From NCBI GenBank assembly GCA_965204745.1, contig OZ242010.1, positions 576,001 through 640,000 on the forward strand: a stretch of DNA of 64,000 bases, in the 5' to 3' direction. The DNA comes from Candidatus Latescibacterota bacterium. Lineage in GTDB: Bacteria > Latescibacterota > UBA2968. The position numbers were made by a program, and so were the translations under genes. Positions within the stretch are counted from its first letter, which is position 1. The number at the start of each line of letters is the position of its first letter. Under the pieces are notes generated by a model, which worked only from the letters and a program-made list of their open reading frames with translations, was not told the DNA's origin and made no database searches. Below, piece after piece: positions 1,592 to 43,370 of this stretch.

Positions 1592-2576
1592 ATGCGAATT
1601 AAGAGTTGAATCCATCGCGTACTTGTCTTTTCTTGAGGGCTCAGTCATTTCACCCTTAAAGGAAGGAGCACGCGATGGATTGGCAAGATAAACTCATTCA
1701 CTTGTATGTCTATATTTGTCAGCAGTATGACCAAAAGCATCTGTGGTTTTATACGGAACGCATGAGTAATAACGACACGCCGACCTTCACAGATGAAGAA
1801 GTGCTGACGATCTATTTGTTTGGGATCATGCAACAACACACGCAGATCAAGGCGATTTATACCTATACCAAGGATCATTTGTTCGACTGGTTTCCCAATC
1901 TGCCCACTTATGCAGGCTATATCCAGCGGTTGAACCGCTTGTGTGTGGTCTTCGCCCCATTGATTGAACAAATCCAAAAGGATAGTCCCGCAACCGATGT
2001 CTCTGAACACACCTACTTGGTGGATTCCATGCCGATTGTTATGGCACAATCGGCACGTAGCGGTCAGGCATGTGTGGCTGAAGAACAACTGGCCAACAAA
2101 GGCCGCTGCGCTTCCAAAAAGATGTGGTATTACGGCACCAAACTGCACATGGTCGCACAAGACCGCGAGAATGGCCTCCCGAAAGCAGAGTACTTCGGCT
2201 TGACAGGTGCAGCAGAGCATGACCTGACTGCTTTGCGACATGTCTTACCCGTTTTGCGTGATGGACACCTCTACGGCGATAAAATCTACGCCGATCAGCC
2301 CTTAAAAGACACGCTTAGCAAACAGCAGAACCTGATCTTCGAGACGCCGGTGAAGCGAAAAAAGGGGCAAGAAAGCCTGACCGAGGCCGAAAAAGACTTT
2401 TCTCGGGCGGTTTCGAGCATGCGACAGCCTATAGAGGCCTTGTTCAGTTGGATTGAACGAAAGACGAACATCTCGATGGCGTCTCGGGTACGATCCTATG
2501 AGGGCTTACTCGTTCATGTCTTTGGGCGATTGACCGCGGCTTGCTTCTTACTCGCTTTCTACTCTTAATTCGCATT
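1591..2576 (+). mobile_element. IS982-family insertion sequence (ends +/-1 bp)
   Basis: Perfect terminal inverted repeats AATGCGAATTAAGAGT (1591-1606) and ACTCTTAATTCGCATT (2561-2576). The transposase stop codon lies inside the right IR. Confidence 0.9.
1675..2568 (+). CDS. IS982-family DDE transposase
   Basis: FTDEEVLTIYLFG, VDSMP, YYGTKLH, LYGDKIY and RQPIEALFSWI motifs. Confidence 0.92.
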   Translation: MDWQDKLIHLYVYICQQYDQKHLWFYTERMSNNDTPTFTDEEVLTIYLFGIMQQHTQIKAIYTYTKDHLFDWFPNLPTYAGYIQRLNRLCVVFAPLIEQIQKDSPATDVSEHTYLVDSMPIVMAQSARSGQACVAEEQLANKGRCASKKMWYYGTKLHMVAQDRENGLPKAEYFGLTGAAEHDLTALRHVLPVLRDGHLYGDKIYADQPLKDTLSKQQNLIFETPVKRKKGQESLTEAEKDFSRAVSSMRQPIEALFSWIERKTNISMASRVRSYEGLLVHVFGRLTAACFLLAFYS

Positions 2577-3940: not shown

Positions 3941-4145
3941 AGAAACGCCCCGGTGATTGCGTGCCCCGCTCATCCACCCATCCACCAGTGCGGCCTTACC
4001 GTGCCACCCAACCGCCGTGTGCGTTATCCCGGCCCATATTCCCCGGCCTCTTGTATCTTTGGGCGAGCACGGGGGCATCGCCCCTACGTTTCTCTCCTCG
4101 CCTCTTGTATCTCGCTTAAAGGGGTTGGGGGTTAGGGTTGGGCGG

Positions 4146-4232
4146 ACTGACTACTGACTACTGACTACTGACTACTGACCACTTGGGGTTGGGGACTGGT
4201 GGCCTTCTTACCTCTTACCTCTTACCTCTCAC
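4146..4232 (+). repeat. Composite heptamer repeats: (ACTGACT)4 ACTGACC, linker, (CTTACCT)3
   Basis: Read directly. Confidence 0.9.
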
Positions 4233-4346: not shown

Positions 4347-5276
4347 ATGAGCAGGGATGCGTTTCGCGGGGTGTTTCCCATTTTGTCAACACCGTTTGCG
4401 AAAAATGGCGATGCCGATTGGGGCGACCTCGAGCGGGTCGTGGATTTTTGTGTGGCATGCGGATCGCACGGAATCGTGTGGCCCGTCAATGCGAGCAGTT
4501 TTCCGGTCTTGACCGATGAGGAACGCATGCGAGGCATGCAGGTGGTCATCGAACAAACGGCCGGGCGCGTGCCGGTCATTCTCGGGGTTCAGGGGGCGAG
4601 CGGGCACCACGCGGCCCTGTTTAGCCGCCACGCGCAGGCATTGGGGGCCGATGGGGTGATCGCCATGGCGCCTTATGTCGAGGCAATCGAGGACGAGGAT
4701 GCGATGGTGCGCTATTTTCAGGCGATTGACCGCGAAGTGAATATGCCCATTTTCATTCAGAATCACATCCGAGGCAGCGAGTTGTCTATCGACGCGATGG
4801 CGCGGTTGATCCGCGAAGTCGAACACATCGAATACGTCAAGGAAGAGTCCTTTCCCGCAACGCACATGACCACGGGCTTGATAGAACGCGCCGGCCCCAA
4901 ATTAAAGGGCGTATTCGGCGGTGCTAGCGGGCGGTACTTGTTGCTCGAACACCCGCGCGGCGGTGCCGGGCAAATGCCGGGGTGCCACATTCCAGATGTG
5001 GTGGTGCGATTGTGGAACGCGCTAGAAGCCGGGGATTTGACAGAGGCCAAGCGGGTATATGGCATCATGGCGCCGCTGTTCGCGCTGGAGACCCTCAAAG
5101 GCACGACGTACCCGGAAATCCTGCGCCGGCGACAGGTGATCACGAGTTCGCACAGCCGGTTGACGACCCACTTTCCCATGCAAGATGCGTACGATCACGC
5201 CGCCCTAGACGATATTTTGCGCGATTTGCAACCGCTGTTCACATGGAACGAGAAGCCGGTGTTGTTTGGAAGGTAG
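4347..5276 (+). CDS. Dihydrodipicolinate synthase-like (DapA family) aldolase/lyase
   Basis: FRGVFPILSTPF, GRVPVILGV, Schiff-base Lys in YVKEE; GAGGAGG RBS. Confidence 0.85.
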   Translation: MSRDAFRGVFPILSTPFAKNGDADWGDLERVVDFCVACGSHGIVWPVNASSFPVLTDEERMRGMQVVIEQTAGRVPVILGVQGASGHHAALFSRHAQALGADGVIAMAPYVEAIEDEDAMVRYFQAIDREVNMPIFIQNHIRGSELSIDAMARLIREVEHIEYVKEESFPATHMTTGLIERAGPKLKGVFGGASGRYLLLEHPRGGAGQMPGCHIPDVVVRLWNALEAGDLTEAKRVYGIMAPLFALETLKGTTYPEILRRRQVITSSHSRLTTHFPMQDAYDHAALDDILRDLQPLFTWNEKPVLFGR

Positions 5277-5306
5277 TGGTCAGGCCACCCGGCCCAACCC
5301 CCTTCG

Positions 5307-5341
5307 GTAAGACGTAAGACGTAAGAGGGAAGATACAAGAT
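5307..5341 (+). repeat. Degenerate heptamer tract (GTAAGAC-type) framed by CCCAACCCC / GGGGTTGGG
   Basis: Read directly. Confidence 0.75.
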
Positions 5342-9175: not shown

Positions 9176-9251
9176 TGGAGCCATCCAGCGGATTCGAACC
9201 GCCGACCGCCTGATTACGAATCAGGTGCTCTACCAGCTGAGCTAGGATGGC
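9176..9251 (-). tRNA. tRNA-Thr(CGT)
   Basis: GCCATCC acceptor stem, AGCTCAGCTGGTAGAGC D-arm, CCTGA-TT-CGT-AA-TCAGG anticodon arm, GGTTCGAATCC T-arm, encoded CCA; 76 nt. Confidence 0.97.
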
Positions 9252-10353: not shown

Positions 10354-11808
10354 ATGAAAATTTTGCTCGCGGCATTCAAACAGGAAACCTCCAGTTTCAA
10401 CCCGGCGCGCACGCCTTACGACCTGTTCAACGTGCGGTTTGGCGACGCGTTGTACGCACTGCGCGGTAGCAACACGGAAATCGCCGGCGCGCTCGATGTC
10501 TTTGATGGCCGGCGCGACCTTGACCTCGTGCCCCTGTATTCGGCCTCGTCGGTCTCGGGCGGGCCAGTCGCCGATGCGGCCCTTGACCGGCTGATGGACG
10601 AATTGCTCGCCGCCGTTCGCAACAACGCGCCCGCAGATGGGATGCTCATGGTTTTTCACGGCGCGATGGCCGGCGAAACCGAAGTGGATCCCGAAGGCCA
10701 TGTCCTGTCCGAAATCCGCGCCATCCTCGGCGATGTGCCCATCGTCACCACCTTTGACCTGCACGGCATCATCACGGACCGCTTGGTCGCGCATTCCGAC
10801 ATCATGGTGCCATTCCACACCTATCCGCACATCGACATGTACGAAACCGGCCAACGGGGTGCGCGCAACTTGCTCGCCCTGCTTGACGACAATGTCAAAC
10901 CCACAGTGGCGCGCGTCCGCCTGCCCATGCTCGTGCGGGGGGACGAACTCATCACCAAAACCGGCCGCTTTGGACAGGCCATCCGCTGGTGTCAGGATAT
11001 CGAAAACTCCGAAGGCGGTCTGGGCAGTGGGGTTTATATCGGCAACCCCTTCACAGACGTGCCGGACTTGCGCTCCAACGTGATCGTCTTCACGGACAAC
11101 GACCCCAACCGCGCCCGAGATGAGGCCGAGCGCATTGCCCGATACCTGTGGGACAACCGCGATCACTTCACTGCTCCGCTCGTGTCAATTCCGGACGCGA
11201 TTCGCTTGGCCGAACAAACCGAGGGGCTCACGGTATTTTCCGATGCTGCGGACGCCACCTCGTCCGGCGCGTCTGGGGATAGCAACGCCATTCTCAAGGG
11301 CTTGTTTGAACACGGATACACGGGCCGCACGCTCCTGCCGATAGTCGATCCACCGGCCGTTGAAGCCGCGTTTCGCGCAGGCGTGGGCGCGACCCTCACC
11401 CTGCCCATTGGCGGCGCGATAGACAAAACGCGCTTTTCCCCTATCGAATGCGAGGTTTATGTCAAATTGCTCACGGATGGCGACTACACCACGGGCACGG
11501 GCACATCCGGGCGTGCGGGCAACACCGCTGTTCTCGCGACCAACACGTACAGTATCATGGCGACCACGCGCCCGGTCAGCATTATGGATCGCAAGGTTTT
11601 TGAAGCGCGGGGCCTGGATCCGCGGGATTTCGATTTGGTCGTGTGCAAATCGCCCAATGGCTTTCGGGTTCACTACGAAGAAATCGCGGCCCGAATCGTG
11701 CCCGTGGATGCGCCCGGCTCGACCAGCGCCAACCTCAAATCCCTGCCCTATACCCAATGCCCGCGGCCCATATTTCCGTTGGATGAAGCGGTGAGATGGG
11801 AGACGTGA
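10354..11808 (+). CDS. M81 family metallopeptidase (MlrC-like)
   Basis: QETSSF, FHGAM, DPEG, DLHG and HTYPHIDM motifs. Confidence 0.92.
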   Translation: MKILLAAFKQETSSFNPARTPYDLFNVRFGDALYALRGSNTEIAGALDVFDGRRDLDLVPLYSASSVSGGPVADAALDRLMDELLAAVRNNAPADGMLMVFHGAMAGETEVDPEGHVLSEIRAILGDVPIVTTFDLHGIITDRLVAHSDIMVPFHTYPHIDMYETGQRGARNLLALLDDNVKPTVARVRLPMLVRGDELITKTGRFGQAIRWCQDIENSEGGLGSGVYIGNPFTDVPDLRSNVIVFTDNDPNRARDEAERIARYLWDNRDHFTAPLVSIPDAIRLAEQTEGLTVFSDAADATSSGASGDSNAILKGLFEHGYTGRTLLPIVDPPAVEAAFRAGVGATLTLPIGGAIDKTRFSPIECEVYVKLLTDGDYTTGTGTSGRAGNTAVLATNTYSIMATTRPVSIMDRKVFEARGLDPRDFDLVVCKSPNGFRVHYEEIAARIVPVDAPGSTSANLKSLPYTQCPRPIFPLDEAVRWET

Positions 11809-11813
11809 GATGC

Positions 11814-11880
11814 AGTGGTCAGTCCCCGCCCATCGCCGCCCAACCAGAGGGAAGACGTGAGACGTGAGAGGCAAGAGGAC
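11814..11880 (+). repeat. Composite repeat: AGTGGTCAGT, CCCCGCCC linker, GACGTGA/GAGGCAA heptamers
   Basis: Read directly, just after the MlrC-like gene stop. Confidence 0.65.
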
Positions 11881-14300: not shown

Positions 14301-14368
14301 GCATCCGTGTCATCCGCGTAATCCGTTTAATCCGCGATCTGCCTTTCATCCGCGCAATCCGTTTAATC
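14301..14368 (+). repeat. 9-bp-period repeat (AATCCGCGT / CATCCGCGT)
   Basis: Same motif as the core of the ~110-bp dispersed element and as 989-1010. Confidence 0.6.
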
Positions 14369-15742
14369 CATGATCGCTTTTTCCCACATTGCCACGTATT
14401 CTTCGGGCGCGAGGGGCCAGAGAGAGCCATGGTCGGCTCGCATTTGGGCGTGGTTTTTGGCGTGCATGTCTTCGGCTTGGGCGGCGATCACGGCAGGGTC
14501 TTCGGGAATGGCGCCATGGGTGTCAAAGGTCTCGATCCAGTTGTCCACGCGACCGCGCAGGTCGGTGAGCACAGCGCGGTGATCGGGCGAGTCCGCGAGG
14601 TTGTGGATCTCGTGCGGGTCCGCTTGCAGGTCGTAGAGTTCCTCGTAGGGCCGGTAGGGCGCGAGGAATTTGGCTTGGGCGTCTGTGAGTTTGCCCTGTT
14701 TGGCGAGCACCGGGAGGAGTGTCCACAGCGGATATTGCTGGTGTTTGTACCTGTTGAATTGCATGTACGGGCGATCTGGATGGTAGTTGCGAATGTACTT
14801 GTACTGTTTCGTCCGCACGCAGCGAATCCGATCCACTGTGCCGTCGCACCGGTCGCGGGCAGAGAAAATTTCACTGCGCGACGTGGCATCGTCCCCCAAG
14901 AAGATGTTGCCCTGCATCTCGGCCGGGACATCCAACCCGGCGAGCGAGAGCGCGGTGGGGGCAAAGTCGATGCCGCTGACGAGTTCATCGCTCACGACGC
15001 CCGCGTCAATCCCCGAGGGCCACCGCGCGATGCAGGGCACGCGAATGCCGCCGTCGTAGAGAAATTGCTTGTCGCGGATGTGGGCACGCCCGTGGTCCGC
15101 GATGAGGAAAACAATGGTGTTGTCGGCTATGCCCTCGTCTTCGAGCCGCTGGAGCACCCGACCGACCTTGCGGTCAAACACCTGAACGCTTTCGAGGTAC
15201 ATGGCCCAATCTTTTCGCACGAGCGGATGATCCGGATAATAAGGCGGGAGTTCCACCGAGTCCGGGTCGATGGGATTTTCCGGGTCGGGCGTGAAATTTC
15301 GGTGCGTGTCCGTGATGTTGTTTTGCGCGTAAAACGGCTGACCCTCTGCGCGTTGGGCCCAGTCGATGCCGTCGAAGACGTCTTTGCGCTGAAAGTTGAA
15401 ATCGGTCTTGCCGGGCTTGTCAAATGGCGGGCCCGGGCTGTTGCACGTATAATATCCCGCGTCCCGAAAGTAGTCCGTGATGAGGCGAATGTCACGCGGC
15501 AGTGGGACATCGCGCTTGCTGCGGTGATTGTGCGCGTCAATGCTGGTTTGGTACCGGCCCGTGATGATGGCCGACCTGCTCGGCGAACACACCGGGCAGG
15601 TGACAAACGCATTCGTAAAGAGCGTCCCCTCCGACGCCAGTTGGTCGATGTTCGGGGTTTGTACAACCGGCGTGCCATAACAGGCGAGATTGGGATACAG
15701 GTCTTCGCCGTAGATCCAGAGGATGTTGGGTTTATCAGTCAT
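14363..15742 (-). CDS. Cys-type (S1) sulfatase
   Basis: KPNILWI, CSPSRSAIITG, ADHG, LYDGGIRVP, ELYDL..DPHE motifs. Confidence 0.95.
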   Translation of the reverse strand: MTDKPNILWIYGEDLYPNLACYGTPVVQTPNIDQLASEGTLFTNAFVTCPVCSPSRSAIITGRYQTSIDAHNHRSKRDVPLPRDIRLITDYFRDAGYYTCNSPGPPFDKPGKTDFNFQRKDVFDGIDWAQRAEGQPFYAQNNITDTHRNFTPDPENPIDPDSVELPPYYPDHPLVRKDWAMYLESVQVFDRKVGRVLQRLEDEGIADNTIVFLIADHGRAHIRDKQFLYDGGIRVPCIARWPSGIDAGVVSDELVSGIDFAPTALSLAGLDVPAEMQGNIFLGDDATSRSEIFSARDRCDGTVDRIRCVRTKQYKYIRNYHPDRPYMQFNRYKHQQYPLWTLLPVLAKQGKLTDAQAKFLAPYRPYEELYDLQADPHEIHNLADSPDHRAVLTDLRGRVDNWIETFDTHGAIPEDPAVIAAQAEDMHAKNHAQMRADHGSLWPLAPEEYVAMWEKAIMD

Positions 15743-15829: not shown

Positions 15830-16633
15830 TCACCTTGCGCCGCACGCTTGTAGCGATGCCTGCATGTGCCCGCGGGTTTCCGCGCCGATGATGCAACACT
15901 GTTCCAAACTGTATCCTTGGGCCTTTGTGCCGATGACCTCGAGATTGACCGGGCCATCGTACCCGTTTTCGTGCAGGACGCGGATGTACCCGACCAAGTC
16001 GATATCCCCGCGGCCATTGGCCTGATTGTGCGGTTCACCAGGGCCGCGTTCCCTGCCTTTGCAGTCGCGGATGTGGATGTGTTTGACGCGCGAGATCACG
16101 GCGGCGATGGCTTCGACTGGGTTTTCATTTGCGCGGTGAATGTGCGACGGATCCATGTCGATGCCAAAGGCGGGGGACGTGATGGCGTCCATTGCGCGCA
16201 GGGTGGTCGGCGTGTTGTAAATGGCCGCGCCTACGTGGGCTTTGACGCAAAGGGTGACGCCGTACTTTTCCGCCATGTGGGCGAGGTTGCCCAGAGAATT
16301 GATGCTTTGCTGGAAGGTCGCTTCGTCATCCGATTTCCCCCCCGGCCCGCAGTTGACGATGGGAATGCCCGCTTCGTTTGCGGCCTGAAACGCCGTTTCC
16401 ATCATGACGGGGTCTTGTTTGGGTTGTTCCATAGCGAGCAGGTCGAGGCCGTATTCTCGCCCCAAGCGTTTGGCTTCTCGCGCTGTTTCGCGCCAGTTGT
16501 CGAGGACGAGGTGCTGGCTCATCCCGCCAATCGCCGAGACTTCAATCCCGTCATACCCAGCCATCGCCGTGTACTTAAACGCGGTCTCCATATCCCACGC
16601 GCCAAAAAGAACCGAGTTCAATCCGAGTTTCAT
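15830..16633 (-). CDS. Sugar phosphate isomerase/epimerase (xylose-isomerase-like TIM barrel)
   Basis: AGYDGIE, DPSH, HIHIRD, GYDGPVNLE. Confidence 0.85.
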   Translation of the reverse strand: MKLGLNSVLFGAWDMETAFKYTAMAGYDGIEVSAIGGMSQHLVLDNWRETAREAKRLGREYGLDLLAMEQPKQDPVMMETAFQAANEAGIPIVNCGPGGKSDDEATFQQSINSLGNLAHMAEKYGVTLCVKAHVGAAIYNTPTTLRAMDAITSPAFGIDMDPSHIHRANENPVEAIAAVISRVKHIHIRDCKGRERGPGEPHNQANGRGDIDLVGYIRVLHENGYDGPVNLEVIGTKAQGYSLEQCCIIGAETRGHMQASLQACGAR

Positions 16634-16740
16634 GTTTCCTCCTGTGGTGAAAGAAAGCCCCCAACCCCGGTATTCGCTCTGCTCGGGGAATCGAGACAAC
16701 CAAAAGATGGCAGAATACCTCTGTCCCACCTCGGGAAGGG

Positions 16741-16824
16741 GTTATCATCGCTTCATCGCCGGCAAATCCACCTGACCACTGACCACTGACTACGTTATCA
16801 TCGCTTCATCGCTGGCAAATCCAC
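16741..16824. repeat. 31-bp direct repeat (16741-16771 / 16794-16824) flanking a CTGACCA heptamer tract
   Basis: GTTATCATCGCTTCATCGC[C/T]GGCAAATCCAC twice, separated by CTGACCA CTGACCA CTGACTA C. Confidence 0.92.
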
Positions 16825-18604: not shown

Positions 18605-19061
18605 TTGTCAGTAGTCAGTTGTCAGTCCGCCCTGCCCTTCAACCCCTCAAGTGAGACGGGAGAGGGGAATGGCGAGAGGGTTTTTGGGGTTCATGGCGTG
18701 ATCCATTCGCCCAAAGCCATCAGAATAGCCCTGGATACAAACCTTCAAGAAAGCCATGCGCTCCCCCCTTTCCTTGTAGGCACAGGCGTAGCCTACAAGG
18801 AGCGAAGCGAATAACGGGGGCCGGGGGGATAGGTCGCATTTTCATGGCATTATCCATTCGCCCAAAGCCATCAGAACAAGCATAGATATAAGCCATCAAA
18901 GGAACGCTACTCCCCTTTCCTCGTAGGAAAGGGGCCGGGGGATAGGGCTATGGCGGCAGGGCGTGCGAAGGACACTGCGGAGTGGGAACGATGAAGCGGC
19001 GGCAGGGCGGTGTGGGGTAATCCGCGTAATCTGCGTAATCCGTTTAATCCGCGATTCAGAC
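18605..19061. repeat. Mosaic of dispersed repeats (heptamer tract, MITE-like arms, ~110-bp element in reverse)
   Basis: Shares blocks with 34701-35170, 42981-43169, 46304-46645 and 50148-50376. Confidence 0.8.
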
Positions 19062-24290: not shown

Positions 24291-24728
24291 CGGTCTATCC
24301 GTCAAAGTCGAACTCCGAACACATTGAATAATGTTCACTTTCCCGTGGAATATCGAGATCGTCGTATTTCATGAAAACTCCTTATTCTCGCTTTTGTTGC
24401 ATCGTATTCACTGCCGTTCCGCAGTTCAAAGAAGCCATCCCAACAAGTGCCATCACAACAGACCATCAGCTAAAGCCATCACGCACAGCGCGCAAGTCCG
24501 TCTCGCAACCAACATCCATGTTGCAACCCACTTTGCAGGCTGGCGCATATCGTTCTGTTACAAAAGCGCTTTGCGCTGTGCAAGCCCCTCGGCGTTTGAG
24601 AGCGGCATTTTTTGCCTACTTTTTTTTGCTGTTGAAAAAAAGTAGGTCGCCGAAGGCATCAAAGGCAACCAACGAGGCTGTAGGACCAAACGCCTTAAAT
24701 CAGCAAGCACCACAAATGTCAACACAAC

Positions 24729-25796
24729 CTAGTAATCCCCATTCTCCAGCCTTTGCAACGCTGTTAGGCGAGGTTTGCCGCCGCAGATCTTGAGGTAGGT
24801 TTCAAAACGATCTGTGCCATAGAGGTATTTGTTCAGGAATGCGCGATAGGTGTCGGGGGCGCGCTCGGCGTCTAGCCACGCCTTGAGGTGCGCTTCGTCA
24901 GAGGCGTATTCGCCTGCCATGTTGCCGGGATACGACCCCCAGGGGACGTGGCACACGGCATTGACGCAAAATGCGGGGATCGCGGTCGCATTGGGGTCGC
25001 GGCGGATCTCATCGGTGCTCACAACGCGCTCGGCGCTCACAATCACATGTTTGGCTGCGCGGGGCAAATCCCAATCGGCAACCGTGATGCCCCGAATGCG
25101 GCAATTGCCGCGTCTGTCGCTCTCGTGTACGTGGATCAGTGCCACGTCGGGGTACAGCGCGGGCACGGCGACGAGGGGTTTGCCGGTGAAGGGACATTCG
25201 ATTTTTTTGGCTGCACTCTCGTCGAACGTATCCGTGCCCAGCATGCTGCGAATCGGCAAAAAAGGCACGCCGGTTGCAGCGGCCCGAAACCGACAGGCCA
25301 GCGCGTAATTCGTCCACTCGCACACCGCAACCGCGCCGCTCTCCATTAATCGCCGCGCCTGTGCGGACAACCCGCGCGCTTCCAAGCCCACAATATAGGC
25401 CGCATCTACCCGCGATAAAATTTGTTTTCCACTGCGCGTCCCGGCTGCCAAAATCTGAAAGTCGTGGGTGGTGGTATGACCGGCAAATCCCAGGTTCACG
25501 CGCTCTTGCCGCACAATCTCGTGCAACAACGCGGTGGCGATGCGGTTGCCGCCAAATCCGCCAGACGCCACATAGTCGCCATCGTGGACAAACTGGGCAA
25601 TGGCATCGGAGACAGACATCAACTTGTCGGTCAACGCGCCCTTTTTTTGCCGGAAAAACGCCCGTGCAATGTCGGGATCGGGATCGGTGAACAGAGGGCC
25701 TCTGCCCTTACCTCTTGCCTCTTGCCTCTCGCCTCTTGCTTCGTCGGGATCGGTGAACAGGGGGCCTCGGCCGGTGTTTTCGGAGTTTGTCATCAT
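24729..25796 (-). CDS. CoA-transferase alpha subunit with an in-frame repeat insertion near the N-terminus
   Basis: DKLMSVSDAI, GGFG, AAATGVPFLP, CPFTG, PALYPDVALIHV; duplicated GRGPLFTDPD. Confidence 0.9.
   Translation of the reverse strand: MMTNSENTGRGPLFTDPDEARGERQEARGKGRGPLFTDPDPDIARAFFRQKKGALTDKLMSVSDAIAQFVHDGDYVASGGFGGNRIATALLHEIVRQERVNLGFAGHTTTHDFQILAAGTRSGKQILSRVDAAYIVGLEARGLSAQARRLMESGAVAVCEWTNYALACRFRAAATGVPFLPIRSMLGTDTFDESAAKKIECPFTGKPLVAVPALYPDVALIHVHESDRRGNCRIRGITVADWDLPRAAKHVIVSAERVVSTDEIRRDPNATAIPAFCVNAVCHVPWGSYPGNMAGEYASDEAHLKAWLDAERAPDTYRAFLNKYLYGTDRFETYLKICGGKPRLTALQRLENGDY
25678..25772. repeat. 29-bp direct repeat (25678-25706 / 25744-25772) flanking five CTTGCCT-type heptamers
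   Basis: Read directly; the 66-bp period keeps the reading frame. Confidence 0.92.
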
Positions 25797-28080: not shown

Positions 28081-28578
28081 TTACCTTTTTAACAAATTGA
28101 GACCTTCAATTTTTCGCACGGGCGAATCGCGCAAGGACGCCGCTAAAACTCGCATGGATTGCCGCAAGACCGGATGCTTGAGATGCGGGTTGAGGTCGCA
28201 AAGTGGGATCAGCACAAAGGCTCGCTCGTGCAAGTGCGGGTGTGGCACCTGCAAGCCCGGCTGGTGAATGACCACATCGCCGTAGAGTAAGATATCCAAA
28301 TCCACTGTGCGCGGGCCCCATCGCGTTCGGCGCGTGCGACCGAATTGTCGCTCGACCGATAGCAGGTAATTCAACAACTTTCGCACGGAAAGTCGAGAGC
28401 GAAGTTGCAACGCGGCATTGAGAAAACGCGGCTGATCAACCACCCCTACCGGCGCGGTTTCATAGACCGCTGAAGTAGCGACAACAGCGATTTCGGAATG
28501 GGCGTCCAAAACGCCGACCACATTCTGGAGCGTCTTTTCCCGATCCCCCAAATTCGCGCCGATGCCGATGTAGATCAT
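28081..28578 (-). CDS. folK: 2-amino-4-hydroxy-6-hydroxymethyldihydropteridine diphosphokinase
   Basis: IGIGANLGDR, YETAPVG..DQPRFLNA, WGPRTVDLDIL, PHPHLHERAFVL. Confidence 0.97.
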   Translation of the reverse strand: MIYIGIGANLGDREKTLQNVVGVLDAHSEIAVVATSAVYETAPVGVVDQPRFLNAALQLRSRLSVRKLLNYLLSVERQFGRTRRTRWGPRTVDLDILLYGDVVIHQPGLQVPHPHLHERAFVLIPLCDLNPHLKHPVLRQSMRVLAASLRDSPVRKIEGLNLLKR

Positions 28579-28620
28579 GGTCAGTAGTCAGTAGTCAGTG
28601 GTCAGTAGTCAGTGGTCAGT
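28579..28620 (+). repeat. Heptamer tract (GGTCAGT/AGTCAGT)6 abutting the folK start codon
   Basis: Read directly. Confidence 0.92.
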
Positions 28621-28891
28621 CCCCCCGCCATTCCACCCCGCAAGTGAGAGGCGAGACGCAAGAGGCAAGAAGGCCACACCGCCATTCAAACCCGCCATTC
28701 CACCCCGCAAGTGAGAGGCGAGACGCAAGAGGCGAGAAGGCCACACCGCCATTCAACACCGCAAGTGAGAGGCGAGACGCAAGAGGTGAGAAGGCCACAC
28801 CGCCATTCAACCCCGCCATTCAACCCCATAAGTGAGAGGCGAGACGCAAGAGGCGAGAAGGCCACACCGCCATTCAACACCGCAAGTGAGA
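28621..28891 (+). repeat. Tandem array of 54/67-bp units with core AAGTGAGAGGCGAGACGCAAGAGG..AGAAGGCCACACCGCCATTCAA
   Basis: Cores start at 28642, 28709, 28763 and 28830, with a partial at 28884 (spacing 67, 54, 67, 54). Confidence 0.9.
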
Positions 28892-28913
28892 ATGGAGAAA
28901 TGGGACGAGGTGC

Positions 28914-31900
28914 CTATCCCGCATTTTCATGAAAAATTTTTGCCAGATAATCGTAGTTGTCGTCGCGGTCAAAAAAGAGAATGTGCTTGTCGGCGAAATC
29001 CTCGCGGCGCCATGAGCCATTCTCGTAGCGTTCGCACAAGTCCCGATAAGGCGTTGTCGAAATGATGAACGAATCGAGGCGCACCTCCGACACATTGGCG
29101 GGACGGGTTATTTTACGCGCCAATTTGGGCAACCGCTCGTGGAGTCGGGCCTTGTCGTCGTGGCGATAAGCGTTGGCGTTGAGCATGCCGTGCGGTTCGA
29201 TAAATGCGATGCGTTGCCGGTTGGAATCGACAATCCAAAGAATGAAATCGGGATAGAATCCGCTGGTTTCAAAGAACCCGATGCCCGTGCCTCGGCCCTG
29301 ATTCCGCAAAAGAAATACCTCTGTGCCGGCCAGCGCATCGTCCTTCTCTTTTGCCCAGAACGCCTTCAAGTCATCGACAAATCGTCTCTCGCCTTCGTTC
29401 AACCCCGGCGGCGACAGCGTTATTTTATCAGCGCTTTCCACGAGCAAGGGCTGGTACAGGTGTTGATCAAAATGAATGCGCGGCAAATTGCCCCTGTCGC
29501 TTTCGCAGAGCGCGTGGCAATCGGCGATGAGTTGTTCGAGATCGCCTATCAAAGTTTCTTCTGATCGGGGAACGCTGACGATGTACCGCCCGGTACCGCC
29601 GTCTTTGCCGATGTTGAAGTTGAAGTTGGGGTCGCTTTGGTCCAGCGTCTTATAGACCAGGCCCTTTGACTCCCATCGCGCTCGTTTGTGCCGATAGAGC
29701 GCGTCCGCGTATTTTCGCACGATGCTGACCACGGTCTCTTGCAAGCGCTCGCGGTCCGCATAACTGCGCGGTTTTACCACCTGCTCCTCGGCGATCAGGC
29801 GATACGCGGGCGGCGCGGCGACGAGAATCTTTCTCGGCGCATCCGGGCGGATGATCAGGTTGCACAATCCGCGCTGTTCCTTGTAGTCGAGCAGGTCGAG
29901 ATAGACGCGCCCCCAATCCACCAACGCGAGGCTTTTGTGTGGTATGTCCCTTTCCTCGCCGGAGGTGGCGCGGTCCATTTCGGCAAAATCGCTGTCCAAC
30001 TGGCTCACCTTTGCAGACACATCGACCAGCACGGGCCGCACGCCGGAATTGGGGGCCAAGAGCACCTCGGAGTCGGCTGCGAAATCCCGGTCGTCGTCCA
30101 TGCGGGGGATGACCAAGCCCTTGTCGAGAAAGTCCCGATTGGGCCGAATGACCAACGGCAGTTCCAACACCCCATCCGTCGCCACGCCTTCGCGCTCCAA
30201 GTAATCCCGAAATTGGGCCATATAATTGGCGCGCACGGCAAAGATATTGAGCGTTTCCAGCGCCTTGATGTAATCGGGATGCCGCCCGTCGAGTGCGGCG
30301 CTGCGTTTCAGCGTCATCCCCCGCCCGCGCAACCGCACGCCGCGGCCAAACAGCTGGATGATCTGCGACCCCTCGCTCCTGCCAATGTTGAGCAACCCCA
30401 TGTTGGATACGCGCCAGGAATCCCAACCTTCGATAAATTTTCGGGCGCCGATCAGCACCTCAATGGTCGTTCCCGGTTCGTTGATCCCGTCAAACAGCGA
30501 GCCGGAGAAAGCGTCTTCCTCCATCGCGATGCCGGCGTTGTCAGCCGCGACCAGATTTTTGAATTTCGTCGTATCCCCAATGTAAATCAAGCCGAAGTAC
30601 TCCTCGGCCCCGCCGACTTTAAGCCCGATTTCGCCATCGCGGCCGCGGATGTTGCACAGGTGTAGCCCACTGCCGGCGGCGGCGTGCAACACCCTCGCCA
30701 GTATATCCCGATACAGCGTTGCCGAATCCCGCCCGCGCAGGTACTCGAATTTGTCGGCGAAAACGTCTTTTCCATCCGCGTCGCGCAAGCCCGAATGCCC
30801 CGTCAGCAACTGGTCAATCGCACCCGTAGCCCAAGTCGCATTCGCTATCAGCCGATGCAAGAACCGCACCACCGTCAAAATATCGCTCCGGGGTTGGCGT
30901 CTTTCCGTATAGACCGCGTTGACGCTACCGCCCACGAAAACCCACAGGGGTCGGGCCAGATTGTAGGGCCGGAACGCCTCGGCCCGTTCGGCAAAGACGA
31001 GTTGCTGTTCGTAAAAGGAGAGCAAGTTGGCGAGCAGCAACCTATCCGTTTGGTCCGCAGTCGTCTCCTGTTGCAAGTTGAGAATGTGGAAGTCCTTGCC
31101 ATAGCCATCGCCGTAGAAGTAGCGATAGGAATAGTCAAACGCGATGGCCTTGCCGTATTCAGCCATCAGATCCGCGTTCCGCGCCGCGGTCAGGGCTTGC
31201 CCAAAGGTCGCGCTGTACTCGAAGGTGAACCCGGTCTCGCCCAGTGCATCGCGCAGGTTGCGCCACGCTTCGCCGCCAGAGCCTTTGTGCCCCTCGTCGA
31301 CAAAAATCAGGTTGTTGCCCGCAAATGCCTCGACGGGTACGCGCACCCCACCGCCTCGCTTTTCCCCGACCAACTTGGTAATCTCGGTCACCTCGATGGC
31401 ATTTTGCCCCGCCCCCAGCAGGCTGCTTTTGTTCAGTTCAAACCGCGACGCGGGGATGTTGGACGCTTGCAGTTCTGCCAGATGTTGCTCGGTCAATCCT
31501 TCGTTGGGCGTGATCAACAGGATGTTGTCCAATGCCTCGGCATTGTAATGGAGGAACTGCCGGTAGTTCAGGTGCATGATGAGCGTCTTGCCACTGCCGG
31601 TCGCCATCCAAAACGCCAGTTTTCGCAAATCCGCCTCGGCAAATTCCGTTTCCCGCGCCTCTCGGGCGGAACGCTTGACATTGCGCCGTTTGACCAAATC
31701 GTTCAGCGAGCGCAACAACGCGCCTTGGCGGTTGAAGCACCAGTCGAGAAAAATTTCGGTGTATAGGGCCGCCAGATATTGGAAGTAGCGCAAGGTGATG
31801 GGCCGGAGCCGCCCCTTGTTCATCGCCGTCAGATGGGTGCGGATATGGGCGTCGTACTGCGCCAAATCGGCCAGCGAAACATCCTTCAGGTGGCTCGGTC

Positions 31901-32090
31901 GAGACGCCAACCGGGCGTAGATATGGCTACGGCCTTCGGCGTCAAAGCCTTCATCGACCTGCTCCATGTCCGCTAAGAGATCGCGGTTTCCCAGATAGCC
32001 CAGCCGTTCATTCAGCCAGGCCAACAGAACCAGCCGTCGTTCCAGACTGGCATAGTTGCTCGGTTGCACTTGGGTTCGTCGGCGCGGCAT
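28914..32090 (-). CDS. res: Type III restriction endonuclease Res subunit
   Basis: WMATGSGKT, DEGH, YSATF, EGWD, QLFGRGVRL, C-terminal YPDFILW..IEPHG nuclease; downstream of mod. Confidence 0.92.
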   Translation of the reverse strand: MPRRRTQVQPSNYASLERRLVLLAWLNERLGYLGNRDLLADMEQVDEGFDAEGRSHIYARLASRPSHLKDVSLADLAQYDAHIRTHLTAMNKGRLRPITLRYFQYLAALYTEIFLDWCFNRQGALLRSLNDLVKRRNVKRSAREARETEFAEADLRKLAFWMATGSGKTLIMHLNYRQFLHYNAEALDNILLITPNEGLTEQHLAELQASNIPASRFELNKSSLLGAGQNAIEVTEITKLVGEKRGGGVRVPVEAFAGNNLIFVDEGHKGSGGEAWRNLRDALGETGFTFEYSATFGQALTAARNADLMAEYGKAIAFDYSYRYFYGDGYGKDFHILNLQQETTADQTDRLLLANLLSFYEQQLVFAERAEAFRPYNLARPLWVFVGGSVNAVYTERRQPRSDILTVVRFLHRLIANATWATGAIDQLLTGHSGLRDADGKDVFADKFEYLRGRDSATLYRDILARVLHAAAGSGLHLCNIRGRDGEIGLKVGGAEEYFGLIYIGDTTKFKNLVAADNAGIAMEEDAFSGSLFDGINEPGTTIEVLIGARKFIEGWDSWRVSNMGLLNIGRSEGSQIIQLFGRGVRLRGRGMTLKRSAALDGRHPDYIKALETLNIFAVRANYMAQFRDYLEREGVATDGVLELPLVIRPNRDFLDKGLVIPRMDDDRDFAADSEVLLAPNSGVRPVLVDVSAKVSQLDSDFAEMDRATSGEERDIPHKSLALVDWGRVYLDLLDYKEQRGLCNLIIRPDAPRKILVAAPPAYRLIAEEQVVKPRSYADRERLQETVVSIVRKYADALYRHKRARWESKGLVYKTLDQSDPNFNFNIGKDGGTGRYIVSVPRSEETLIGDLEQLIADCHALCESDRGNLPRIHFDQHLYQPLLVESADKITLSPPGLNEGERRFVDDLKAFWAKEKDDALAGTEVFLLRNQGRGTGIGFFETSGFYPDFILWIVDSNRQRIAFIEPHGMLNANAYRHDDKARLHERLPKLARKITRPANVSEVRLDSFIISTTPYRDLCERYENGSWRREDFADKHILFFDRDDNYDYLAKIFHENAG

Positions 32091-32092
32091 CG

Positions 32093-32800
32093 CTAGGTCC
32101 CTTCTGCGAGGATGGCTTCCAACTGACCGATGAGCGGCGGCAGGTGATTCTGCACAATATCGCAGAGCGTATCGAGGTCCACTGAGTCGTACGCGTGCGC
32201 CAACAGGTTGCGCGCGCCGATCATTTTGCCCCACGGCACTGCCGGGTGGCGTTCCCGCGTCGCTGGCGAGACCCGGTTGGCGGCCTCGCCGATAACTTCC
32301 ACGGCGCGCGTAAGGGCCAATTCCTTTATCCAGTCGCCTTCCAAGTCCTCTGGGCTTAGCTCGCCAAACGAATCAACGGCTTTTCTCGCGTAGATGAGCA
32401 TATTCAGCAGGCTCACGCGGTCATCGCGCCGCTTGCCACCCGTCTTGAGGGACTTGTCGCTACCTTCTCGCGCCCAGCTTTCGCATCCCGGCCCCCGCTC
32501 GTACAGCATCTCGGCGGACCCGAGTATTTCCGCTCGCAACAACCAGTTTTGCTTGCTTTCAACCCCCTCGAAAGTGTGCAAATCCGCCTCTCGACCAAAA
32601 ATGGTCGACAATTCGTCCTGCATATCGATGAATGCAAACCCCGGCGTCCGACCCGGCTCAAATTCCACCAGCACATCGACATCGCTTTCTGGCCCGAAAT
32701 CGTCTCGCAACACGGAGCCAAAGAAAGCCAGGCGCCGAATGTGGTTGCGCTGACAGAACGCGGCTATCGCGTCTTTTGAAATCTCGATTTTCGCATTCAT
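32093..32800 (-). CDS. Fused MNT nucleotidyltransferase and HEPN (DUF86) RNase
   Basis: FGSVLRDDFGPESDVD in the N-half; EVIGEAANRVS..PW..RNLLAHAY (RX4HXY) in the C-half; single open frame. Confidence 0.85.
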   Translation of the reverse strand: MNAKIEISKDAIAAFCQRNHIRRLAFFGSVLRDDFGPESDVDVLVEFEPGRTPGFAFIDMQDELSTIFGREADLHTFEGVESKQNWLLRAEILGSAEMLYERGPGCESWAREGSDKSLKTGGKRRDDRVSLLNMLIYARKAVDSFGELSPEDLEGDWIKELALTRAVEVIGEAANRVSPATRERHPAVPWGKMIGARNLLAHAYDSVDLDTLCDIVQNHLPPLIGQLEAILAEGT

Positions 32801-32844
32801 CTCGCCACCTCCGCGAACATGCGCGCTTTGAACATCGGCTCTAC
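32655..32844 (-). repeat. ~190-bp near-identical copy of 35341-35530 (mod 3' end plus MNT 5' end)
   Basis: Offset 2686 bp; only a few substitutions. Confidence 0.92.
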
Positions 32845-32846
32845 TG

Positions 32847-33062
32847 CTATGGCTTCAGTGCCTTTGATTCGTGATTCAAAACGGCCTTCACCTGCCACTC
32901 TTCAACGCCGTGAAACCAATTGAGAAACTGCTCGGTGGAAGCACCCTCTCGCAGATTATCGAACAGGGCATATACGGGAACGCGCGTTCCGCGAAACACC
33001 CAAGTTCCGCTCACTTTGTCGGGATGTCGTTCGATAGCCGTGCATGTATCCCAATTCAGCAT
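32847..33062 (-). CDS. DUF433 family antitoxin-like protein (no partner toxin nearby)
   Basis: IERHPDKVSGTWVFRGTRVPVYALFDNLREGAS. Confidence 0.88.
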   Translation of the reverse strand: MLNWDTCTAIERHPDKVSGTWVFRGTRVPVYALFDNLREGASTEQFLNWFHGVEEWQVKAVLNHESKALKP

Positions 33063-33096
33063 GAGATCACCCGATACCTTTCTGCTGACCATTGTT

Positions 33097-33135
33097 AATG
33101 CGAATAAAGCGTTGAATCCATCGCGCCCTTGTCCT
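33097..33135 (+). mobile_element. Orphan IS982 left-end remnant
   Basis: AATGCGAATAAAGCGTTGAATCCATCGCGCCCTTGTC resembles 1591-1627. Confidence 0.7.
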
Positions 33136-33166
33136 TTCGCTACTCGGTGGATTCAATCCCTCTCGG

Positions 33167-33301
33167 TCACGTCTCAAGGGTCAACTCTGACCCGCTGGAC
33201 TCGATGGCCTTCAGCATCACTTGCATGTTGGGATAGCGTGCGGTGCCGATCAACAGTCGGGATCGGTAGGTCACGCCTGCGATTGTGAAGTCGTTTGTCA
33301 T
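33167..33301 (-). pseudogene. thiG: 5' fragment of thiazole synthase
   Basis: Manual translation MTNDFTIAGVTYRSRLLIGTARYPNMQVMLKAIESSGSELTLET* resembles the ThiG N-terminus. Confidence 0.75.
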
Positions 33302-33352
33302 GGTTAGTGGTCAGCGGCTTTGGGAACATCGCCCGCCATTGTCCTATGTACG

Positions 33353-33415
33353 CACAAGCCCTCGCAACGCTTGGCCCCGAACAATCCGTTCAAGGTCAGC
33401 CTGCGAGGGCTTGTG
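33353..33415. repeat. Long imperfect hairpin; second copy at 34850-34903
   Basis: CACAAGCCCTCGCA...TGGCCCCGAA...CGTTCAAGGTCAGC.TGCGAGGGCTTGTG. Confidence 0.7.
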
Positions 33416-33432
33416 TCGTTAAGGGACGTGCG

Positions 33433-33855
33433 TTAGGCCTCCGCATCCAACATGTGCTGAAAGGCCGCCAGATCATCCGCTTGCACCGCTGCACGATGCA
33501 ACCGCTTGAGCCTCGGCAAATCGTCGACAGCCGCAATGTGACCGGCGAACTGGCCGGCCACACCTGCATCAAAGCGAATCTCCAACACGTCGAGGATGTC
33601 TTCAACCGCTCGTTCTCTGACCCCTCGCTCGATTCCCTGCTCGATTCCCTGCTCGATTCCCTGCTCGATTCCCTGCTCGATTCCCTGCTCAATGCCCTGC
33701 TCGATTCCCTGCTCGATTCCCTGCTCGATTCCCTGCTCAATGCCCTGCTCAATGCCGCGCTCGATTCCCTGCTCAATGCCCTGCTCGAGGAACTGTTCCT
33801 TGAACTGTTTCTCGAGGTACTGGGCAAACGATGACTCACGCATAATCGCGTCCAT
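33433..33855 (-). CDS. Putative intragenic small protein (RpnS-like antitoxin), in frame
   Basis: AGGAGG (33861-33866) 5 nt before the in-frame ATG at 33855 (MDAIMRESS...). Confidence 0.6.
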   Translation of the reverse strand: MDAIMRESSFAQYLEKQFKEQFLEQGIEQGIERGIEQGIEQGIEQGIEQGIEQGIEQGIEQGIEQGIEQGIEQGIERGVRERAVEDILDVLEIRFDAGVAGQFAGHIAAVDDLPRLKRLHRAAVQADDLAAFQHMLDAEA

Positions 33856-34494
33856 AAAACCCTCCTGTGAAAGAATCCGCATGATGGTGGCAGGATCATA
33901 AGCCAACCCACTCAAGACCGCCAAGCTACCCAAATAATTCGCCTTGTCTGCCTGATCCAACGAAACCGAATCGCCCTTGCGAACACACGCGCGCAACCAG
34001 TCCTCGGAACCCATCCCCACAGGCGGCTTCATCAACGGCGCGAAAGGAAGCAAGCCGGCCTGGTCGCCTTCAAGAATGCCCTGCCCGTCCAACTCGCTCA
34101 ACCGAAGCACCTTGTAGCGCACCAGCACGGGAAAGTCCGCATGATCTTGGCGGAAAAATCCTTTATCGCTCCGCCCGGCATTGGGACGCAGATAGATGAC
34201 AAAGGAATAGACCGGCAAGCCATACTGCTCGATGAGGCGGATGATATAGGAAGCCATGCGACGAGCCATATTCGCGCTGTCGTCGGTTTGAAATTCGATG
34301 TGAACCAAGGCTTCCTCGCCATCGATCCGCACGCGAAGGAGGCTATCGACCAGGCGTGTTTCCACCTTGGGGAGTTCGGTGTCGAGGACTTCTTCAACTT
34401 CAATTTCGACATCCTCGCGTCCGAGAGCCAAGCGGATGAGGTCTTGCGGGTAGATGCGAATCAACTGCTTGGGAATCGTATCGTATTCTGCCAT
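33433..34494 (-). CDS. Rpn/YhgA-like PD-(D/E)XK-family protein
   Basis: YDTIPKQL, RLVDSLL, LVHIEFQT...MARRMASY, LLPFAPLM, then (EQGI)n linker and LEIRF helical C-terminal domain. Confidence 0.85.
   Translation of the reverse strand: MAEYDTIPKQLIRIYPQDLIRLALGREDVEIEVEEVLDTELPKVETRLVDSLLRVRIDGEEALVHIEFQTDDSANMARRMASYIIRLIEQYGLPVYSFVIYLRPNAGRSDKGFFRQDHADFPVLVRYKVLRLSELDGQGILEGDQAGLLPFAPLMKPPVGMGSEDWLRACVRKGDSVSLDQADKANYLGSLAVLSGLAYDPATIMRILSQEGFMDAIMRESSFAQYLEKQFKEQFLEQGIEQGIERGIEQGIEQGIEQGIEQGIEQGIEQGIEQGIEQGIEQGIEQGIERGVRERAVEDILDVLEIRFDAGVAGQFAGHIAAVDDLPRLKRLHRAAVQADDLAAFQHMLDAEA
33619..33786 (-). repeat. 14 x 12-bp coding tandem repeat (EQGI/ERGI)
   Basis: GATTCCCTGCTC and AATGCCCTGCTC units on the plus strand. 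Confidence 0.95.
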
Positions 34495-34617
34495 GGGGCG
34501 CCTCCTGATGTGGTATTGTTTGAACGATTTGCGAAGAAAAATAAATAATCTCCAATCCCGCTCGCGATGTCAAGTGATTTTCCCATCTGCTCCGCCCCAC
34601 CGCAAGCCCTATCCCCA

Positions 34618-34651
34618 AGTAAGAGGTAAGAGGTAAGAGGCAAGAGGTAAG
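34618..34651 (+). repeat. Heptamer tract (GTAAGAG)n
   Basis: Reverse complement of the CTTACCT family. Confidence 0.85.
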
Positions 34652-34700
34652 ATCCACCCACCGCGCCGCCACCCGTGCGTGCCCTTCCCGTCCCCGCCAT

Positions 34701-34809
34701 GTCTGAATCGCGGATTAAACGGATTACACAGATTGCGCGGATTACCCCCACAACCCTACAGCCGCTTCATCGTTCCCCCCGCTATGTCCTTCGCACACCC
34801 CGCCGCCAT
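34701..34809 (+). repeat. ~110-bp dispersed element (copies at 46304-46410 and 18950-19061 reverse)
   Basis: GTCTGAATCGCGGATTAAACGGATTAC.CAGATT.CGCGGATTACCCC...GCTTCATCGTTCCC...TGTCCTTCGCA. Confidence 0.88.
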
Positions 34810-34940
34810 CAACCGTAGGGATAGGCCCCTGTGCGCGCCCGACCTAAAAAGCCCTCGCATAGCCTGGCCCCGAATCGATTCGTTCAAGGTCAGCATGCGA
34901 GGGGATTGTATGAGGGATTTTTAATCGCTTATGCCCTATC

Positions 34941-35170
34941 GGGACCTACCCCCCTGGCCCCCGTTACTCGCTACGCTTCGTTGTAGGCTACACCTGTGCC
35001 TGCGAGGAAGGGGGGAACTGTGAGCGGTTTTGCGAGGGGATTGTGCGAGGGGGTTTGGGTTTCTATGGCGTGATCCATTCGCTCAAAGCCATCAGAGCAA
35101 CCAGAGCGAGAAGTCATCAAAGGGACTTTCTCCCCTTTCCTCGTAGGAAAGGGGCCGGGGGATAGGTCCC
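34941..35170. mobile_element. MITE-like element with GACCTA[C/T]CCCCC terminal inverted repeats
   Basis: GGGACCTACCCCC...GGGGGATAGGTCCC; replaces the region after the MNT domain. Confidence 0.75.
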
Positions 35171-35486
35171 CTTGCGTTTGCTCATAGAGTTCCTCCGCCG
35201 AATTGAGTATTTCTTCCCGGAGTAACCAGTTGGGATTGTCTTCAACCCCCTCGAAAGTGTGCAAATCGGTTTTTCGCCCCAGGATTTCGCCCAGTTCAAT
35301 CTCCAATCTCATCAGTCCCATGTAGCCAATGCTCGTCCCTGGCTCAAATTCCACCAGCACATCGACATCGCTTTCTGGCCCGAAATCGTCTCGCAACACG
35401 GAGCCAAAGAAAGCCATGCGCCGAATGTGGTTGCGCTGGCAGAACGCGGCTATCGCGTCTCTTGAAATCTCGATTTTCGCATTCAT
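34971..35486 (-). CDS. MNT nucleotidyltransferase; C-terminus runs into the MITE and the HEPN partner is absent
   Basis: FGSVLRDDFGPESDVD; ATGA overlap with the mod stop; real domain ends near 35180. Confidence 0.8.
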   Translation of the reverse strand: MNAKIEISRDAIAAFCQRNHIRRMAFFGSVLRDDFGPESDVDVLVEFEPGTSIGYMGLMRLEIELGEILGRKTDLHTFEGVEDNPNWLLREEILNSAEELYEQTQGDLSPGPFPTRKGEKVPLMTSRSGCSDGFERMDHAIETQTPSHNPLAKPLTVPPFLAGTGVAYNEA

Positions 35487-38515: not shown

Positions 38516-38525
38516 GTTGCGGTCC

Positions 38526-42980: not shown

Positions 42981-43169
42981 GGACCTACCCCCCTAACCCC
43001 CCTTCCTGCGAGGAAGGGGGGAACAGTGAGCGGTTTTGCGAGGGGATTGATGAGGGATATTTAATCGCTTTATACCCTCGGTCAACGCCATCAGAGCAAC
43101 CAGAGCGAGAAGCCATCAAAGGGACTTTACTCCCCTTTCCTTTTAGGAAAGGGGCCGGGGGATAGGTCC
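42981..43169. mobile_element. MITE-like element (same family as 34941-35170)
   Basis: GGACCTACCCCC...GGGGGATAGGTCC. Confidence 0.75.
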
Positions 43170-43287
43170 CCTCGCGCAACGCCATCAGAGCAACCTAAGC
43201 CATCAAAGGACCAAACGCCTTAAATGAGCAAGAAGCAACACAGTTGCTACTCTGTGCGGCACAAAAAATGAAATGTCAACACAACCT

Positions 43288-43370
43288 ACTGACAACTGAC
43301 AACTGACAACTGACAACTGACAACTGACAACTGACAACTGACAACTGACAACTGACAACTGACAACTGAC
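43288..43370 (+). repeat. Heptamer tandem repeat (ACTGACA), about 12 copies, ending in the hflC stop codon
   Basis: Read directly. Confidence 0.95.

Follow-up and report, generated by a model that had tools for sequence, protein, structure and literature searches.

Two short tracts of tandem heptamers in a 64-kb stretch of Latescibacterota DNA (the window) each lie between two near-identical copies, 31 and 29 bp long, of an otherwise unique sequence, at sites where related sequences carry neither tract nor duplication. The first, at the 3' end of a dehydrogenase gene (event 1), is a real, lineage-specific duplication-insertion, being neither the insertion of a transposon nor a simple tandem duplication; the second (event 2) lies in frame within a CoA-transferase gene. 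We put at roughly 50% the probability that these structures were made in one step, by template switching or by the repair of a staggered break. Two young insertions having intact flanking duplications and empty sites for comparison represent, to our knowledge, the first footprint of the birth of such a tract at a unique site, and a literature search confined largely to papers outside subscription returned no description of heptamer tracts flanked by target duplications of about 30 bp.

Among the longer simple repeats of many bacteria, heptamers are the class with the strongest over-representation, according to the accessible parts of two reports (PMC4692102, PMC4679880). Both summarise an earlier survey (Mrazek 2007) as having found heptameric simple repeats to be over-represented in bacteria, with intergenic tandem heptamers whose copy number changes in 7-nt steps attributed to polymerase slippage. 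Direct repeats of TAACTGA, which are short, dispersed and mostly intergenic, occur in Beggiatoaceae, Cyanobacteria and Bacteroidetes (MacGregor 2015, PMC4679880); the accessible text of that account places them often just before start codons or overlapping stop codons, with a few inside the ends of ORFs, and sees no evident mechanism by which they spread (PMC4679880). What is new here is an insertion footprint for a known type of dispersed repeat, which makes the spread of heptamers testable, in that duplication lengths, junction microhomology and donor tracts can be read from complete genomes.

A heptamer tract between two copies of a gene end

As the earlier note on this DNA had described, a 31-bp segment occurs twice around a tract of CTGACCA-type heptamers (Table 1). 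Searched with up to three mismatches, the 31-mer has exactly two matches in the window, and none of 100 dinucleotide shuffles contained two. The copies differ by a single C/T substitution and both abut the 22-bp tract, which TRF resolves at 16772-16790 as head-to-tail direct heptamers (period 7, 2.7 copies, 100% matches) and which belongs to a CNACTGA family dispersed over the window. The duplicated segment had further been identified as the last codons and stop of the dehydrogenase gene; this proved correct, with an amendment as to strand. The gene lies on the minus strand, so that its own 3' end is the copy at 16794-16824, comprising the last eight codons (VDLPAMKR), the TGA stop at 16798-16800 and four bases beyond, and the copy at 16741-16771 is the spare one, situated 53 nt from the genuine gene end and out of frame with the other. 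The dehydrogenase ORF is intact despite the event, because with about 30 bp duplicated an insertion in the last codons re-creates the stop. The TIM-barrel gene downstream starts, as judged by its orthologues, at the ATG at 16631-16633, after AGGAGGAAAC.

Table 1. Coordinates of the two duplication-insertions, the genes concerned and a composite array in the window
Feature	Position	Strand	Basis or content
Xylose-isomerase-like TIM-barrel gene, downstream neighbour	15830..16633	-	Pfam and orthologue comparison
Event 1, spare 31-bp copy, downstream of dehydrogenase	16741-16771	-	30/31 identical; non-coding
Event 1, inserted heptamer tract, 22 bp	16772-16793	+	2x CTGACCA, 1x CTGACTA, 1 extra base
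Event 1, genuine dehydrogenase 3' end (one 31-bp copy)	16794-16824	-	Runs on into conserved gene body (L001-L020)
D-isomer-specific 2-hydroxyacid dehydrogenase gene, 360 aa	16798..17880	-	PF02826, E 2.7e-35
CoA-transferase subunit A gene	24729..25796	-	PF01144; event 2 near 5' end
Event 2, left copy, 29 bp	25678-25706	+	27/29 identical to right copy
Event 2, inserted tract, 37 bp, CCTCTTG-family heptamers	25707-25743	+	Encodes EARGERQEARGK on gene strand
Event 2, right copy, 29 bp	25744-25772	+	Direct-repeat scan, flank test
Intergenic composite tandem array	28579-28913		Periods 54, 67, 121 (TRF)

A genome scan yielded 26 loci from relatives, 20 of which (L001-L020) encode orthologues of the dehydrogenase with 71-95% amino acid identity; 19 of these are titled as Latescibacterota or Latescibacteria metagenome-assembled genomes (MAGs) and one (L018) only as "bacterium". 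The earlier note had named the alignment of orthologous loci as a check on its reading, and the outcome agreed with it: behind the stop codon, the heptamers and the 31-bp duplication are absent from all 20 of these Latescibacterota loci, and the arrangement in the window is therefore the derived one. Most of them (13 of 20: L004, L005, L007-L016 and L019) have only a spacer of about 15-25 bp after the stop, ending in ...AACCCCTTACAGGAGGAAACATG. Inspection by eye showed that the spare copy in the window runs directly into TAACCCCTT, as does the sequence after the stop in L004 and L010. The MAFFT alignment, which took in seven of the 20 loci and in which the row of L010 is void, left this 9-nt segment unaligned and placed that stretch of the window in a gap. 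On the reading by eye, both outer junctions of event 1 look ancestral, and the addition would consist of one 31-bp copy together with the tract. Simple tandem duplication would have placed two whole copies of an already existing segment head to tail, and it cannot give the layout observed at event 1, where the tract is found a single time and the ancestral sequence lacks it.

In other lineages, the spacer between the dehydrogenase and TIM-barrel genes has acquired other insertions. L001 (11060-11250) carries three copies of an 18-bp repeat (GCCACAAAAGGCGAGAGA) along with hairpin-like repeats, and L017 (11057-11190) a (GATTCGT)n heptamer tract having no flanking duplication; L002 (11063-11170) has part of the extra sequence of about 90 bp that lies at 16634-16735 in the window.

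An RNA element or terminator at event 1 was considered and rejected: the region folds no better than its shuffles (z +1.0), and one terminator-like and one promoter-like consensus match there are near chance level. On the plus strand, the tract and the start of the adjoining gene-end copy together make up a sigma-70-like match at 16772-16801 (CTGACC, 18 nt, TATCAT; 9/12), a match to consensus only, which points antisense into the dehydrogenase gene. Over the whole window, the sole Rfam match at or above the gathering score of its family is a tRNA (9179-9251).

An in-frame counterpart in a CoA-transferase gene

The earlier note had also suggested looking for further examples, and a short-range direct-repeat scan found one within the window. 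This one spans 25678-25772 and has the geometry of event 1, with 37 bp of heptamers from another family between the copies of a 29-bp segment. The addition amounts to 66 bp, or 22 codons, in frame in the N-terminus of the encoded CoA-transferase subunit, so that the protein reads ...GRGPLFTDPD EARGERQEARGK GRGPLFTDPD PDIARAFF..., and the two differences between the copies are synonymous. Each of the 120 homologues listed has a single GRGPLFTDPD, and the 22-residue insertion is absent from all of them. They are mostly 328-338 residues long (three have 347, 350 and 355) against 355 for the window protein, and the closest among those listed (P0004) shares 325 of 333 aligned residues with it and has one gap, of 22 residues. 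The survival of event 2 is explained by its length, 66 bp being divisible by three, and by its position in an N-terminal tail. It shows that a heptamer insertion into coding sequence need not destroy the gene.

Between the two CoA-transferase subunit genes, some 270 bp (24425-24697) match three separate places in L001 at 77-90% identity; this segment looks like a dispersed repeat common to the window and to L001, its closest relative.

The tracts of events 1 and 2 represent two different heptamer families, both dispersed in this genome, which fits copying from existing tracts; the units vary within both. The geometry was surveyed from two directions. Among direct repeats, the only isolated two-copy cases in the window of at least 25 nt with a gap below 100 bp are events 1 and 2, and both gaps are heptamer tracts, a class of sequence that totals about 839 bp, or about 1.3% of the window. 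Among heptamer tracts, 26 were tested for flanks in the window, and three have a long flanking repeat that abuts exactly on both sides: those of events 1 and 2 and one within the composite array at 28.6 kb. No flanking duplication was found at the other 23, and most tracts of the window therefore either arose differently or are old. A direct-repeat scan allowing mismatches found no copy-tract-copy structure in about 490 kb of sequence from the 26 relatives' loci; a scan of window and loci for exact matches was uninformative. Synteny between the window and its relatives extends to only two or three genes, which leaves the other tracts of the window outside any empty-site comparison. The evidence comprises two events, both from a single 64-kb window, about 1% of an estimated genome of 5-6 Mb.

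The composite array (28579-28913) consists of a 31-bp heptamer block alternating four to five times with a non-heptamer segment of 23 or 36 bp, and looks like the alternation of copy and tract expanded into a minisatellite. Heptamer insertions may seed minisatellites, and events 1 and 2 may be young seeds of this kind, able to grow by unequal exchange into such an array. Two of its periods, 54 and 67 bp, approximate the total lengths added in the two events, 53 and 66 bp, with a difference of 13 bp in both pairs; this near-match may be coincidence.

Routes to a duplication around a heptamer tract

The formal reading given in the earlier note, a long target duplication around an inserted simple repeat, is upheld by the position of the tract between two copies of unique sequence, by the empty orthologous sites and by event 2, with its 29 as against 31 bp. 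Under the one-step duplication-insertion that we favour, a DNA 3' end of the plus strand, whether nascent, nicked or broken, would be situated at the gene-body edge of the 31-bp segment and would finish in a few bases matching the heptamer unit. That end would pair with heptamer DNA, either a dispersed genomic tract or a template copied reiteratively, and would be extended by about three units in event 1 and about five in event 2. Synthesis would then resume on its own template some 30 nt behind the point of departure, so that about 30 bp of target would be copied twice. A staggered break with complementary 3' overhangs of about 30 nt, with heptamers serving as filler, would give the same product. 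No function of the heptamer tract itself is implied by this reading.

The junctions bear on such a mechanism. On the plus strand, the last four nucleotides of the left copy recur in the inserted tract in both events (CCAC at 16768-16771; TGCC at 25703-25706), the background frequencies of such a match being 0.029 and 0.091, respectively; none of six other junction-adjacent 4-mers occurs in the tract. The claim that the heptamers have no local template accordingly holds overall, with the exception of these four bases at event 1, and CCAC is a possible microhomology seed. Agreement between the departing 3' end and the filler is what template switching or filler repair would entail, and the 4-nt matches are only suggestive of it, this being a weak test, defined post hoc, of a match that is short and one base off a seamless continuation. 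When the last 10 nt of the left copy are compared with the tract, event 2 gives p ~0.01 and event 1 is not significant (p 0.20). Neither event shows microhomology at the return junction. Neither the window (about 1% of the genome) nor the 26 loci contained a donor tract for one or the other junction or for the whole 22-bp tract, a negative that weighs little in either direction. These structures would be compatible with repeat addition at staggered nicks or with templated break repair, as put forward in the earlier note, and the 4-nt junction match in both events is the one further observation that speaks to such a mechanism.

Processes of this general kind have eukaryotic parallels. Paired nicks in plants are said to give rise to tandem duplications and filler insertions. 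In animals, the accessible text of one study describes short tandem duplications and templated insertions that stem from end-joined extended 3' ends (Kamp 2021, PMC8654963). The events described here share with these a short duplication of sequence adjoining a break, filler sequence copied from another place, and junctional microhomology; they differ in that the eukaryotic pathways depend on polymerase theta, whereas here every filler comes from a heptamer family resident in the genome and the duplications are of nearly constant length (n=2). Slippage, for its part, explains the growth of a tract, not its birth at a new unique site with a 30-bp duplication. Heptamers of this sort, termed STRR, were reportedly described in cyanobacteria by Mazel in 1990.

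The near-equal duplications, 31 and 29 bp, around unequal inserts of 22 and 37 bp hint at a ruler, which free template switching does not predict. A ruler would be expected if dedicated machinery attacked the two target strands about 30 bp, or three helical turns, apart and the 29-31 bp were true target-site duplications, an explanation that we consider possible though unlikely; such machinery might be a polymerase or reverse transcriptase that adds repeats at nicks, or else an integrase that inserts short duplexes of heptamers. The constancy of duplication length despite inserts that differ in both length and family argues for it, as does the abundance of strong heptamer tracts, 13 in the 64-kb window against nine in about 420 kb of relatives' loci, a pattern that looks like a burst specific to this lineage; moreover, the seed on the 3' end that was extended resembles the priming of a repeat-adding enzyme. 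Telling against it, the 53 ORFs of the window (about 1% of the genome), when searched with Pfam, include no reverse transcriptase, Cas1 or integrase except one IS982 transposase, the heterogeneity of units within tracts is unexpected from reiterative copying of one template, and 23 of 26 tracts have no duplication, with only two events to set beside them. We attach correspondingly low odds to a broader proposal, that TAACTGA-type tracts are a minimal form of mobile DNA, whose units would be set at new unique sites by a dedicated activity (repeat-adding polymerase, reverse transcriptase or Cas1-like integrase with a three-turn ruler) that leaves a target-site duplication of 29-31 bp, and that the lineage is in mid-burst.

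Two known kinds of insertion may be set beside these events. Telomerase adds short tandem repeats at breaks whose 3' end resembles the repeat, producing interstitial telomeric sequences; such insertion is eukaryotic and RNA-templated and gives uniform repeats, and we know of no bacterial counterpart. In the present case the units vary, and no reverse transcriptase is found among the window ORFs. Insertion sequences and transposons likewise leave a direct target duplication on both sides of the insert. Their duplications are typically 2-14 bp (ISfinder), and only a few IS families give long ones, so that the contention in the earlier note that DDE transposons give much shorter duplications is mostly true. 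The duplications described here are 29-31 bp, whereas the IS982 element in the window (1593-2573) shows at most 7 bp, and the 22- and 37-bp inserts are pure direct heptamers having neither terminal inverted repeats nor a gene.

An origin in two steps strikes us as distinctly improbable. Either a 31-bp tandem duplication would come first and a tract would follow at its junction, or the tract would come first and the adjacent 31 bp would be copied across in later repair or recombination, in one variant by unequal exchange between tracts in two alleles. Nearby composite arrays of heptamer block and unique segment (28579-28913) clearly grow by tandem duplication, and the copies differ by 3-7%, a divergence that leaves room for several steps or for two alleles as the source. 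This route would nevertheless require two rare events, each precisely placed, and would require them twice independently; no intermediate occurs in the 20 orthologous loci or the 120 homologues listed; at event 2, an intermediate with only the 37-bp tract would shift the reading frame.

We regard it as very improbable that the structures are artefacts of assembly or polishing in a metagenome-assembled genome rich in repeats. All of the relatives are MAGs, as the window probably is too, and simple repeats are prone to error; on the other hand, the copies differ at 1/31 positions in event 1 and 2/29 in event 2, which argues against a polishing or assembly duplicate, the 66 bp of event 2 fall exactly in frame in a conserved gene with synonymous differences, and the same unusual geometry appears twice with different sequences.

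CRISPR spacer integration duplicates a target of about 30 bp around a short insert, and a repeat-spacer-repeat geometry with 29-31 bp duplicated is its product, so that ectopic action of Cas1-Cas2 could be imagined in which the duplication is a pseudo-repeat and the heptamer piece a spacer. Spacers have been reported to integrate off target at other sites of a genome (Nivala 2018, cited in the accessible part of PMC7054753). We give this explanation hardly any credence, since insert lengths of 22 and 37 bp do not agree with a single system, both inserts are simple repeats of resident heptamer families, one junction is similar to the insert, which integration does not need, and the window holds neither a cas gene (53 ORFs, Pfam) nor a CRISPR array (TRF).

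Other candidates were set aside. An attL/attR remnant of an excised island is at odds with the position of event 2 in an N-terminal coding region and with the mere 22-37 bp between copies. Local slippage as the source of the heptamers was rejected, the target being unit-like over at most 4-9 nt and the units matching families dispersed over the genome. Homology-facilitated illegitimate recombination with a foreign allele could account for the mismatches between copies and is not favoured, as the donor strain must already carry the tract at the exact site.

Heptamer families and other repeats of the window

The window, of 57% G+C, contains several heptamer families. CNACTGA-type tracts were located by TRF and pattern scans at 1536 (8 units), 2576, 4146, 18603, 28580, 43288 (12 units) and elsewhere; further families have purine-rich units (AAGAGGN / AAGACGN) or the unit GGGGTTG. 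A 12-mer, CTGACCACTGAC, has 45 matches in the window with up to two mismatches, against 3.25 expected, and CTGACNACTGAC gives five single matches in the 26 relatives' loci.

The units CAACTGA, CTACTGA and CCACTGA found in the window are each identical to TAACTGA at six of seven positions, and CAACTGA is itself given as a rare variant in the list published for that family, in the part accessible (PMC4679880). The placement of tracts is also alike, those of the window being short, scattered and for the most part intergenic, with a few inside ORF ends. The tract at 28578-28620 abuts the ATG of an HPPK gene, with no Shine-Dalgarno sequence between them, and one in a Poribacteria-like relative (L022, 4058-4086) ends 3 nt before the ATG of a dehydrogenase homologue; a CNACTGA-type tract at 43286-43375 overlaps the stop codon (43370) of a Band_7 gene. 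Differences lie in the host, a member of the Latescibacterota, in the coexistence at 57% G+C of several heptamer families, often in composite modules, and in the flanking target duplications, of which the accessible parts of PMC4679880 make no mention.

One such composite module occurs in six copies within the 64 kb, at 18607-18675, 28601-28672, 11808-11880 and 5270-5335 on the plus strand and at 1488-1556 and 4085-4166 on the minus strand. Its order is (GTCAGTN)n, a C-rich core of about 20 nt (CCGCCCAACCCC-like) and purine-rich heptamers (AAGTGAGACG...), and the copies align with 65% mean column identity.

An IS982-family element (1593-2573) with 13-bp terminal inverted repeats lies inside an (ACTGACA)n tract, of which the flanks are at 1536-1592 and 2574-2597; its transposase (1675-2568) scores 150 bits against a cut-off of 130 for NCBIfam NF033520. 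The sequences on either side of it, CTGACAA and TTGACAA, may represent a target duplication of 7 bp, which a surrounding heptamer tract would conceal. The idea may be raised that the element targets heptamer tracts or contributes to them.

Simple and dispersed repeats of other types are present as well. Tandem 9-mers (TAATCCGCG-like) form a separate simple-repeat family, dispersed among intergenic sites at 14303-14369, 19017-19053, 34711-34745 and 46312-46348. REP- or MITE-like repeats with a hairpin (CCCCTTTCC...GGAAAGGGG followed by CCGGGGGATAGG) have at least three intergenic occurrences, including 18690-18940 and 43075-43200. A 12-bp repeat at 33622-33788 (13.8 copies, 89% matches) lies inside the ORF 33433..34494, where it encodes an in-frame protein repeat of four residues; this ORF has only weak, low-complexity matches to FliH models. 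A restriction-modification-like block (28914-38632) encodes a ResIII/SNF2 helicase of 1106 aa, an N6_N4 DNA methylase of 1049 aa and a small nucleotidyltransferase. In a Poribacteria MAG among the relatives (L023, 18259-18342), a cluster of TGTGGATAA motifs is DnaA-box-like and possibly marks a replication origin. Genes resembling those for PorV and PorZ of type IX secretion are found in the window at 46749-50185.
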